From positions 1,047,503 to 1,097,591 of the forward strand of contig CP070805.1 of NCBI GenBank assembly GCA_020343655.1: a stretch of DNA of 50,089 bases. Direction: 5' to 3'. The stretch's first letter is position 1, and each line of letters starts with the position of its first letter. Below the pieces are notes generated by a model. The model did not search any database. It was not told the origin of the DNA and was given only the letters and a program-made list of their open reading frames with translations. Below are positions 47,846 through 50,089 of the stretch, in pieces. Origin of the DNA: Promethearchaeota archaeon (GTDB taxonomy: Archaea; Asgardarchaeota; Lokiarchaeia; Sigyniarchaeales; SOKP01). The position numbers were made by a program, and so were the translations under genes.

Positions 47846-49363
47846 ATGTTTGTTGCTGCATTAGATTTAGGAACAACAGGTTGTCGTACATTTATTTTTG
47901 ATTTAACGGGAACCGTTCTAGCAAGTGATTACCAAGAATGGAGTAGTTATTATCCTTCACCCTCTTATGTCGAACAAGACGCGAAGATTTGGTGGGAATC
48001 AATAAAAAAAACAATTGAGAGGACAATTAAAAAAAGTGGAATTGATAAAACTGAAATTGTTAGTCTTTCTGTTACAAACCAACGAGAAACAATTGTACCT
48101 GTAGATAATCAAGGTAATCCCCTTTATAACGCATTAGTCTGGCAAGATAGAAGAACTATAAAACAAGTTGATTTTATCACTAAAAAGATTGGTGTTGATA
48201 AAATATACAATATTACAGGTTTGACAATTGATCCTTATTTTTCTGCAACAAAGATACTATGGTTTAAAGATAAAAAGCCAAAGATCTACCAGAATGCTCA
48301 CAAGTTTTTGCTAGTATCTGATTACATTATATATAAGTTAACAGGAAAATATGTTAGCGATTTTAGTAATTTAAGTAGAACAATGCTTTTTGATATTAAA
48401 AAATTGAAATATTCTGAAAATATTGCTTCTGAATTAGAAATTGATTTAGATAAAATGCCAGAACCATTAGAGAGTGGTATCGATATTGGAGAAGTTGCAA
48501 CAGACGAAACTCTATTTGACAAAAAAACATTAGTTATAACTGGTGCTGGGGATCAGCAATCAGCAGCTTTAGGTGTTGGAGTTGTATCTCCTGGGGAAAT
48601 AAAATGCACTACGGGAACAGGAAGTTTTATTCTTGCTTATTTATCGCAGCCAAAATTTGATCCTGAGAAACGAGTTTTATGTAGTTGTCATGCAGTTCCA
48701 GGTGCATGGGTTCAAGAAGCAAGTATTTTTACAACTGGAGCTGTACTAAGGTGGTTCAGGGATCAAATAGGGTATGCAGAATGCGCAGCGACTCAAGAAG
48801 GTCAGGATCCTTATGATTTAATTGTCGCTGAAGCAGATAAATCTTCCATTGGAGCAAATGGATTGCTTCTCATTCCCCATTTCGTTGGTGCTGGAGCTCC
48901 TCATTGGAATCCACATGCTAAAGGCATAATTTTTGGATTATCTTTAGGCCATGAACGTAAAGATCTTTATAGGGCTGTGTTTGAGGGTGTGGCCTACGAA
49001 ATACGAAAAAATATAGAAATTTTTAGAGAGATTGGGATAGAACCTAAAGAATTGAAGTTAACAGGTGGTGGCTCTCGTTCTGATTTTTGGAATCAGATTT
49101 ATGCAGATGTATTAGGAATATCGTGTATAAGGAATGTCGTTGAAGAATCAACATCATTAGGAGCTGCGATATTAGCAGCTTCAGGGGCAGGAATATTTCA
49201 AGACATTTCAAAAGCTGCTGAGAATTTATGTAAGGTGGATAAAAAATGGATACCTAACGCTCAACATCATGAAAAGTATAATAAATTCTATAATTTATCT
49301 TATGAATTGTATGATTATTTAAAAAGCAAAAATTATTATAAAAGTTTTAGCGATTTGACCTAA
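47846..49363 (+). CDS. FGGY carbohydrate kinase (glycerol kinase/xylulokinase-like)
   Basis: DLGTTG, TNQRET, WQDRR, YFSATKI.W, SRTMLF, GDQQSA, TGTG, EGVA. The GlpK-like motifs and neighbourhood favour glycerol kinase. Confidence 0.88.
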   Translation: MFVAALDLGTTGCRTFIFDLTGTVLASDYQEWSSYYPSPSYVEQDAKIWWESIKKTIERTIKKSGIDKTEIVSLSVTNQRETIVPVDNQGNPLYNALVWQDRRTIKQVDFITKKIGVDKIYNITGLTIDPYFSATKILWFKDKKPKIYQNAHKFLLVSDYIIYKLTGKYVSDFSNLSRTMLFDIKKLKYSENIASELEIDLDKMPEPLESGIDIGEVATDETLFDKKTLVITGAGDQQSAALGVGVVSPGEIKCTTGTGSFILAYLSQPKFDPEKRVLCSCHAVPGAWVQEASIFTTGAVLRWFRDQIGYAECAATQEGQDPYDLIVAEADKSSIGANGLLLIPHFVGAGAPHWNPHAKGIIFGLSLGHERKDLYRAVFEGVAYEIRKNIEIFREIGIEPKELKLTGGGSRSDFWNQIYADVLGISCIRNVVEESTSLGAAILAASGAGIFQDISKAAENLCKVDKKWIPNAQHHEKYNKFYNLSYELYDYLKSKNYYKSFSDLT

Positions 49364-49478
49364 ATTTAGGATTTTTATCTGCTTTAATACATTTTCATTT
49401 TACTAAAGTATATAAAATTAAATTTTGATTATTTAATAAAATTTAAATTAGTTCTAAATATTTTTGAGGAGAATTTTT

Positions 49479-49864
49479 TTGTCAGAATTTGAACAAAAGG
49501 TATTGAAGTTACTAGAAGATATTAATAGTAAACTTGACAAATTGTTAACAGCTGAGCCTGTTAAAGCTACTCCAGCAAATTATACCCCAAAACCTTCAGT
49601 TGCACCCTCTCCGGCAGTATCAACAGTTAAACCTTCAGCAGTTGTTGATAAACAGGAAATGGAAGAAAAAATGAAGGAAAAACCCCCTATAGAGGGTAGG
49701 AGGGTCTGTTCTGAATGCGGAGGGACTGCTTTTAACACTGTTGAGGATAAAACACAAGTATTACATCAAATGGGCGGCGTAAAGATATATGCTAAATGTA
49801 ATATATTATAAATATATTGCAGGCAAAAAAGTATATTTGTAGAAATTGCGGCGCCGAAATGTAA
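49479..49864 (+). CDS. Coiled-coil/linker/Zn-ribbon protein, predicted join(49479..49795,49828..49864), 117 aa
   Basis: GAGGAG SD at 49466-49471 before TTG 49479. Exon 1 has RRVCSECG...GGVKIYA; the downstream frame gives KKYICRNCGAEM*; a T-tract follows. Confidence 0.8.
49796..49827 (+). other. Putative 32-nt bulge-helix-bulge-type mRNA intron
   Basis: 4-bp helix UGCU(49790-93)/GGCA(49822-25), AAA bulge 49794-96, 11-bp stem 49797-49807/49811-49821; removal restores the reading frame. Confidence 0.72.
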
Positions 49865-49880
49865 TCCTTCAATAAAAATC

Positions 49881-49902
49881 TTTTTTTTTTTAATTTTTTT
49901 TT
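49881..49902 (+). terminator. Oligo(T) archaeal terminator candidate
   Basis: T11-AA-T9 tract starting 17 nt after the restored stop at 49864. Confidence 0.55.
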
Positions 49903-50089
49903 CAAAGTTATTTTTATTTTTGGGTCTCATTAAAATCTTATTAAATGTAATATACAACCTTCTAAAAGCGCGATATTATTTTTAAGAAATTTCTTTATAA
50001 TTCCTTTTAGTTAGGTTTTTAATTTCACTATACTTTAAATTCTTAATTAGAAATTTAACAAGGTAATTGCGGTGTAGATTTAAATTCCT

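Follow-up and report, generated by a model that had tools for sequence, protein, structure and literature searches.

The window analysed here is a 50,089-nucleotide stretch of contig CP070805.1 (assembly GCA_020343655.1) from the genome of a Promethearchaeota archaeon, which according to its taxonomy record belongs to the Asgard kingdom Promethearchaeati; all positions are those of the window unless stated otherwise, and the source genome is called G000. An open frame on the plus strand of the window, from 49464 to 49811, encodes a small protein that ends in ...IYAKCNIL and has a single CxxC, i.e. only half of a zinc ribbon. The peptide KKYICRNCGAEM is encoded in another frame, which also contains the second CxxC, at a distance downstream that would correspond to 17 codons. 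The original prediction, which was made from the letters of the window, had described this arrangement with coordinates that proved to be right and had explained it by a relaxed bulge-helix-bulge (BHB) intron in the mRNA.

The zinc-ribbon gene likely starts with TTG 49479, because its orthologues begin with M/L-SEFEQKV. It is confined to one family: it was found in 60 of the 68 family genomes searched, there were no good matches in 29 other families searched, and the protein encoded by exon 1 has 256 homologues, of which every named one is labelled as Asgard archaea. Intact orthologues have about 113-119 amino acids with the second CxxC at the C-terminus; exon 1 is 71-82% identical to them, and 101 of the 120 best homologous protein clusters end in ...IYAKKY[IV]C..CG..., the intact form. 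G000 has one copy of the gene. Pfam identified no family above cut-off in the protein and only sub-threshold zinc-ribbon matches. In the AlphaFold model (mean pLDDT 69.7), a helix at the N-terminus is followed by a disordered linker and then by a C-terminal ribbon that is modelled with confidence; a Foldseek search with this model against the PDB returned no match at E <= 0.001, the best being 43-residue ribbons of RNA polymerase subunit 9 with E > 0.3. Four genomes of the genus g3 (G040, G129, G147, G180) have two to four matches each, some of them in longer proteins (open frames of 256-301 amino acids) that share the C-terminal ribbon only; the ribbon domain thus also occurs fused to other sequence.

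Deletion of 49796-49827 joins the open frame to the second CxxC, and the resulting C-terminus matches that of intact orthologues. The excised length of 32 nucleotides (nt), obtained in the original prediction from the proposed cuts at 49795/49796 and 49827/49828, is indeed the sole deletion length that restores an orthologue-like C-terminus. A 32-nt deletion can be placed at seven positions and one of these, with exon 1 ending at 49795, gives all four central pairs with the 11-bp stem directly adjoining; where exon 1 ends was set by the BHB rule together with the sole restoring length. Since the cuts fall into runs of A, the pair can be slid by as much as 3 nt with no change to the product. 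All structural elements that had been named are present in the sequence (Table 1): a central helix of three Watson-Crick pairs and one U.G, an AAA bulge, an 11-bp stem with an AUA loop, an unpaired stretch at 49826-49831 and a stem between the two exons. When the 56-nt element is folded alone (RNAfold), the structure is the one drawn, with -11.7 kcal/mol, central pair probabilities of 0.50-0.81 and the outer helix formed. For a 72-nt stretch, the z-score is -2.71, and 4 of 200 shuffled sequences folded equally well or better. A second 3-nt bulge closed by an exon-exon helix, as in the canonical hBHBh' motif, is absent from the window, which has six unpaired nucleotides and then a 7-bp helix; as the canonical outer helix is absent, the motif is of the relaxed HBh' form and not a full BHB. 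An Rfam search of 49300-50089 gave no match. The two oligo-T runs of the locus trail exon 2 and not the premature stop, and intronless orthologues are alike in this; oligo-T serves as terminator in archaea, and these runs are likely one.

Table 1 Features of the zinc-ribbon gene and its proposed mini-intron (window positions), and of the endonuclease genes (genome positions)
Feature	Position	Strand	Description
Exon 1	49479..49795	+	N-terminal helix, Pro/Ser/Thr-rich linker, first CxxC knuckle, beta-hairpin; last base is the second of a Lys codon
Exon-exon outer helix, 5' strand	49783..49789	+	complementary to 49832-49838: 7 bp, one G.U
Central helix H, 5' strand UGCU	49790..49793	+	in exon 1, Tyr/Ala codons; pairs with 49822-49825
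3-nt bulge AAA	49794..49796	+	contains the proposed 5' splice site 49795/49796
Proposed mini-intron, 32 nt	49796..49827	+	sole deletion length restoring an orthologue-like C-terminus
Intron helix h'	49797..49821	+	11-bp stem 49797-49807:49811-49821 with one U.G, AUA loop; present in every fold
Unspliced-frame stop TAA	49809..49811	+	within the intron hairpin
Central helix H, 3' strand GGCA	49822..49825	+	intron side
Unpaired 6-nt stretch	49826..49831	+	location of the proposed 3' splice site 49827/49828; differs from a canonical 3-nt bulge
Exon 2	49828..49864	+	completes the Lys codon, second CxxC knuckle, stop TAA 49862-49864; same codons in intronless orthologues
Exon-exon outer helix, 3' strand	49832..49838	+	partner of 49783-49789
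Two oligo-T runs (11 and 9 T)	49881..49902	+	3' of the exon-2 stop
EndA, 198 aa	G000:C1:622216-622812 (locus L032 1453-2049)	-	Tyr/His/Lys positions kept
EndA paralogue, 209 aa	G000:C1:2000841-2001470 (locus L033 1411-2040)	-	His position replaced

Inserts in related genomes

Orthologous DNA was surveyed in 61 genomes of a phylum-wide sample, in all 54 genomes of the genus and at 33 metagenome loci. The zinc-ribbon gene is present in 48 of the 54 genus genomes and ten of these 48 carry a hairpin insert of 29-32 nt: G000 itself, the genomes G177, G279 and G319, the pair G201 and G315, and the genomes G192, G246, G308 and G207. Two of the 32 classifiable metagenome loci have an insert too (L066 and L081), and the 40 orthologues that belong to the family's other genera are all free of inserts. 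These 12 insert-bearing loci correspond to nine distinct insert sequences with lengths of 29, 30 or 32 nt. They occupy two sites that are 15 nt apart, both after the second base of a Lys codon: the one follows an Ala codon (GCN-AA/A), the other the first Cys of the second knuckle (TGY-AA/A). Exactly at these two sites 19 of the 120 best protein clusters are truncated, and since these were deposited as truncated proteins, gene callers systematically mis-annotate such loci. The tails of two truncated clusters, P0094 (…AKYFAKV) and P0116 (…AKKYVCKTN), match none of the nine insert sequences, which points to further insert alleles that probably exist in metagenomes.

An identical 30-nt insert is present in three separately assembled records (G177, G279 and L066) and another one is shared by G192 and G246; an assembly artefact is therefore ruled out as general explanation. 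In each insert-bearing genome, the zinc-ribbon gene has no other high-scoring copy. A repeated mobile palindromic element, similar to a miniature inverted-repeat transposable element, was considered and rejected: within G000 the window insert matches its own locus only, and the G177-type insert is found once per genome in 3 of the 54 genomes, always at the zinc-ribbon gene. Single-copy inserts of this kind are thus not a repeat family.

The distribution of the inserts is patchy. In a protein tree of the genus orthologues and four picked outgroups (53 rows, 101 columns, metagenome loci left out), G201 is sister to the intronless G327 (support 99/87) and G308 to the intronless G150 (100/87), while G000 groups with the intronless G225 and G318. 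As 22 of the 50 forks are unresolved, the tree served for patchiness only and not for counts of gains and losses. Internal stops had been flagged in G065, G125, G234, G225 and G302; they are situated immediately 5' of the start codon and do not mark additional introns.

The context U-G-Y-(N)-A-A-A is common to the two insertion sites, and at either site the introns start with U/A-UGU or UUG (for example window 49790-49796; loci L016, L018 and L106). This common context could reflect a target preference or a movement of introns between the sites.

Selection on exon 2 and geometry of the alleles

Selection on exon 2 was tested with alleles of the same insert type that have diverged from each other, in three independent pairs: G177-G319, G201-G315 and G192-G308. 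Exon 2 of these pairs has 13 differences, of which 12 are synonymous in the spliced frame and the remaining one changes Val to Ile. By chance, 16% of the changes would be expected to be synonymous (binomial P = 2.7e-9), and the bias remains highly significant when a threefold transition bias is allowed for; in the other two frames, the same pairs have synonymous to non-synonymous ratios of 1:11 and 6:7. Identities within the pairs are 38-60% for the 3' untranslated regions (3'UTRs), 83-90% for the introns and 82-92% for exon 2, and exon 2 has neither indels nor stops in any of the 12 loci. The structure is kept up as well: the U-A of one inner-stem pair in G177 corresponds to A-U in G319, a compensatory change, the A.A mismatch of G192 is a U-A pair in G308, and homologous alleles have U.G, U-A or A-U as their fourth central pair. 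The synonymous bias of exon 2, the divergence of the 3'UTRs and the compensatory changes in the stem together argue that exon 2 is translated in phase with exon 1 and that the hairpin itself is constrained. Intronless IYAKKY alleles and compensatory stem changes were the two outcomes that the original prediction had expected of an orthologue comparison.

To compare the geometry, all deletions restoring the C-terminus were listed for each allele (between one and eight) and scored for a 4-bp helix that ends 2 nt before each cut and for a stem right after the 3-nt bulge. In each allele, exactly one of the restoring deletions shows the HBh' geometry (in G201, this is also the sole restoring deletion), and the prediction gives the right insert length for 29, 30 and 32 nt alike. 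The window, G201, G315, G308 and G207 have a clean geometry: all four central pairs form, the 3-nt bulge reads AA[AU] and a stem of 5-11 bp directly abuts it. The rule that each cut lies 2 nt 3' of the helix is exact for the window (32 nt), for G201 and G315 (29 nt) and for G192, G246, G308 and G207 (30 nt). All 12 loci have AAA or AAU as bulge, with AA or AG in front of the 3' cut; the stem directly abuts the bulge in nine, with a mismatch at the opening of the stem in L081. The central helix has four of four pairs in eight loci and three of four in G177, G279, L066 and G319, counted in the frame-restoring register. Inserts at site 1 are clearly homologous and have UGCN:NGCA as common register. 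Pair tables were made by position; a MAFFT alignment of 11 alleles mixed the registers and was left out of the pair counts.

Predicted splicing, its difficulties and the alternatives

Enzymes that could remove the inserts are encoded in G000: there are two genes with a tRNA_int_endo domain (101.6 and 71.6 bits, cut-off 27), i.e. tRNA splicing endonucleases (EndA), and one gene for the ligase RtcB (570 bits). The 198-aa EndA can be aligned over its full length with 3p1z_B, the catalytic chain of the endonuclease from Aeropyrum pernix (E = 2.5e-34), and is ungapped in the N-terminal region that we take to form the loop; the two EndA proteins differ in the residues that we assume to be catalytic (Table 1). 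The presence of a catalytic subunit and a paralogue that lacks the His suggests an (alpha-beta)2 enzyme. According to PMC5829648, Asgard archaea possess an (alpha-beta)2 EndA with an L1 loop that is linked to a broad substrate range and to the cleavage of relaxed motifs; the broad specificity of the Asgard enzyme is taken from this source.

Aragorn identified only 24 tRNA genes in G000, a genome of 2.27 Mb and 82% estimated completeness, 14 of these 24 with predicted introns, and one call, a tRNA-Lys at 1608888-1609677 of the genome, with an 'intron' of 695 nt. This fits an intron-rich tRNA set, and many tRNA genes of G000 are probably disrupted in ways that aragorn does not model. The single contig of G000 (G+C 29.4%) holds 13,800 N and is therefore a gapped scaffold and not a closed genome. 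Upstream of the zinc-ribbon gene, the window encodes an FGGY-family carbohydrate kinase (47846-49363, plus strand; FGGY_N 240.9 bits, FGGY_C 129.5 bits) with no obvious link to a zinc ribbon.

We consider it probable, at roughly 0.78, that 49796-49827 is an mRNA mini-intron of the BHB class, in the relaxed HBh' form, that is spliced by EndA and RtcB. The geometry, the recurrence (nine inserts at two sites), the selection on exon 2 and the enzyme genes are directly seen, and from these we infer both the cutting and joining by EndA and RtcB and the exact cut positions. The intronless orthologues, the nine inserts, the selection and the EndA and RtcB genes thus speak for a relaxed BHB intron in an Asgard mRNA, as originally proposed. 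On either strand of the helix, a heteromeric (alpha-beta)2 EndA would cleave the pre-mRNA 2 nt further 3', RtcB would ligate the exons and the ribosome would then read on into the second CxxC, which completes a zinc ribbon with four Cys. From mRNA that stays unspliced, a protein with only half of the zinc site would result. RNA excision by the BHB pathway would fit all alleles, with a caveat on the register of the G177 type that is detailed below.

Several observations weigh against this reading. Of the 21 sequencing runs listed for the locus, not one is recorded as RNA. First, as to the fold, with 14-nt flanks or as a 72-nt stretch, the minimum-energy fold retains the 11-bp hairpin only, and the pairing probability of the central helix in the window drops to 0.09-0.16 with longer flanks, because exon 1 pairs with itself (GGCGUA:UAUGCU). 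The outer helix is absent from the longer contexts too: the fold as originally drawn holds for the 56-nt element alone, while in a longer context only the hairpin stays stable. The 3' site lies outside a canonical 3-nt bulge, the canonical outer helix has 0-3 bp across the alleles (0 in the window), and in G192 and G246 the inner stem is interrupted, with 2 bp, a mismatch and then 6 bp. The 32-nt allele of the window was found in no other assembly.

Second, the alleles of G177, G279, L066 and G319 do not fit the simplest register. In the register that they share with the window and that is thermodynamically preferred (UGCA:UGCA; RNAfold), 28 nt would be excised and the frame broken; the productive excision of 30 nt needs a register shifted by one (AUGC:GCAG) with three pairs and an A.G mismatch. 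Such a shift corresponds to a migration of the bulge by one base along a run of four A and leaves the total number of pairs unchanged, but the shifted helix is fully paired in L081 only and the register was picked with the required answer known. Alleles of the G177 type (L004, L008, L066, L099) may thus be spliced ambiguously.

Third, the three pairs of the selection test were chosen after the data had been seen, and other pairs are less clear-cut, with synonymous to non-synonymous ratios of 5:5 (G319-L081), 1:1 (G192-G246), 0:1 (G177-G279), 4:2 (G308-G207) and 4:0 (G177-G201).

Fourth, the motif is not enriched in the genome. The whole 2.27-Mb genome of G000 was scanned for a 4-bp helix combined with a 3-nt bulge and at least 5 bp of stem, with helix spans of 20-90 nt, next to interrupted upstream frames of at least 60 codons; deliberately wrong (shifted) joins served as control. 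The loose pattern has about 30,000 candidates per strand, and joins with at least 40 downstream codons number 449, compared to 398-438 in the wrong-join controls. Window-like geometry is found in 1,194 strong hairpins genome-wide; 34 of these join at least 60 upstream to at least 8 downstream codons, versus 34-37 with wrong joins, and the 11-bp inner stem of the window is the longest among these 34. A filter modelled on the alleles (at least two G/C in the helix, AA bulge, A[AG] tail) left 26 cases, with 20-27 in the controls. There is thus no excess of such introns over shifted joins in G000 and they are not a general feature of this genome; the search for further cases that had been suggested for the same motif came back empty, in a scan that is crude, as it considers frames only, uses no homology and has short terminal exons below noise. 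By structure and frame alone, the case of the window is not above chance. Its significance therefore comes from the homology and the comparative data and not from the motif itself.

The alternative that survives best, which we nevertheless regard as improbable, is that the inserts are dead weight: a hairpin at a mutational hot spot, or a small mobile palindrome, truncates the protein, and exon 2 is intact only since the insertions are recent or were transferred into intact alleles. The patchy presence of insert alleles as sisters to intronless ones, on a weakly resolved tree, and the singleton in the window are in favour, and recent transfer could also explain why introns are better conserved than 3'UTRs. 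However, the 12:1 synonymous bias of exon 2 arises between alleles that already share an insert type, none of the 12 loci has acquired an indel or stop in exon 2 and compensatory changes preserve the stem. Moreover, the insert is single-copy in each genome, it interrupts the sole good copy of a gene that 60 of the 68 family genomes possess, and a simple palindromic duplication would not yield a 4-bp helix between exon and intron with a 3-nt offset.

Even less probable in our view is translational bypass, in which the ribosome leaves the mRNA in front of the hairpin, at the codon for Lys (or Ala), and resumes on a matching one beyond it, with no cutting of RNA. Phage T4 gene 60 is read by such a bypass of a hairpin-containing gap, and several alleles are alike in that matched codons enclose a hairpin and a gap of some tens of nucleotides: in the window, AAA 49794-49796 and AAA 49826-49828 flank a stable hairpin and landing on the second would yield the same protein, matching codons are also present in the G177-type, L081, G315 and G207 alleles, and G315 has a UGA after the take-off codon. 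Different from gene 60, however, G192, G246 and G308 have no matching in-frame codon after the insert and contain four to five in-frame stops, and in G201 a hop would alter the sequence (Ala-Arg-Lys instead of Ala-Lys-Lys). The conserved 4-bp helix between exon and intron would be left unexplained, and to our knowledge bypassing has not been described in archaea (no search was made for it). Stop-codon read-through is rejected, as it would leave the reading frame shifted by inserts of 29 and 32 nt and would have to pass five in-frame stops in the G192 type.

We give slightly less credit still to the idea that the RNA is processed by a machinery other than EndA and RtcB, or that the insert is excised from the DNA. 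The non-canonical 3' site and the one allele group that misfits the simplest register would be compatible with other machinery, but 29-32 nt is far below the size of group I or group II introns, nothing in Rfam matches the region and we know of no other archaeal system that precisely removes about 30 nt and religates the ends. The stability of the inserts in the assembled DNA of several genomes speaks against excision from the DNA. Lastly, an assembly or sequencing artefact in the window deserves almost no credence, given the same 30-nt insert in the G177, G279 and L066 assemblies and another one in G192 and G246, and given that assembly errors do not typically create a perfect hairpin of 11 bp together with an exon helix that matches.

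Comparison with known systems

Splicing of the zinc-ribbon mRNA by EndA and RtcB would have its parallels in tRNAs and mRNAs of archaea and in two eukaryotic mRNAs. As described in PMC5829648, EndA of the (alpha-beta)2 or epsilon2 type cuts non-canonical introns of archaeal pre-tRNAs whose motifs are relaxed (HBh' or hBH). The inserts resemble these in having one good bulge, a 4-bp helix and an intron helix, in their small size and in a host enzyme of the type that accepts relaxed motifs; they differ in that they reside in the coding region of an mRNA, where the constraint is the frame and not the fold of a tRNA.

HAC1 and XBP1 mRNAs each lose a small intron by non-spliceosomal splicing through an endonuclease and a tRNA ligase; the endonuclease, IRE1, acts on twin stem-loops, and the process is regulated by stress. 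Common to these systems and the zinc-ribbon gene are the small intron, its (here predicted) non-spliceosomal removal and the resulting change of the protein C-terminus. In contrast to the IRE1 endonuclease and the stress regulation there, no sign of regulation or of an IRE1-like enzyme was noticed here, and neither was searched for. The kinship with HAC1/XBP1 that had been drawn initially thus holds as an analogy only. For the ligase, PMC8718801 reports that RtcB is involved in XBP1 splicing. A bolder extension, which we think unlikely, is that the inserts are mobile mini-introns: they would move from one UGY-(N)-AAA site to another, through reverse splicing or a similar mechanism, and tie the production of the full zinc-ribbon protein to the tRNA-splicing enzymes, as an archaeal counterpart of the HAC1/XBP1-type switch of the C-terminus, and the efficiency of splicing could then tune the ratio of truncated to full-length protein. 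The short context common to the two sites, the patchy distribution beside intronless sisters and the better conservation of introns than of 3'UTRs are suggestive of this.

Among archaeal mRNAs, the cbf5 pre-mRNA of Crenarchaeota (Desulfurococcales, Sulfolobales) has an EndA-dependent intron with lineage-specific loss (PMC2738675; the intron is also cited in PMC7714728), and according to PMC7714728 this was the only archaeal mRNA BHB intron reported before a case in Haloferax volcanii. The latter is a 46-nt BHB intron in the 5'UTR of HVO_1309, shown by circular RNA sequencing and in vitro cleavage (PMC7714728); the same paper points out that circular RNA sequencing is biased against circles of small size. 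Like HVO_1309, the zinc-ribbon mRNA would be a substrate of the tRNA splicing endonuclease beyond tRNA and rRNA, but the Haloferax intron is situated in the untranslated leader and interrupts no reading frame.

The likeness to the cbf5 intron extends further: both are short, BHB-like, inside a coding sequence and cleaved by EndA (predicted, in our case), both have a lineage-specific presence or loss and both cause errors in gene prediction. Membership in the cbf5 intron family is rejected, as the host gene encodes a zinc-ribbon protein and not a TruB-family pseudouridine synthase; the cbf5 gene of G000 is one uninterrupted frame of 365 amino acids. Different from cbf5, the introns proposed here are in the gene of a small zinc-ribbon protein in the Asgard phylum, with splicing predicted from sequence, and there are two sites 15 nt apart and nine distinct introns within one genus. 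A search of the full-text literature, which did not cover subscription-only papers, found no report of a BHB intron in an Asgard protein-coding gene. The mode of a cbf5-type intron is thus known, and new are the gene, the phylum, the two sites and the many alleles in one genus. If true, this is the second case in a coding sequence, found in the archaeal group closest to eukaryotes, and mRNA splicing of the EndA/RtcB type would not be a crenarchaeal oddity; with two sites and nine alleles in one genus, the zinc-ribbon gene would also offer a natural system for intron gain, loss and possible movement.

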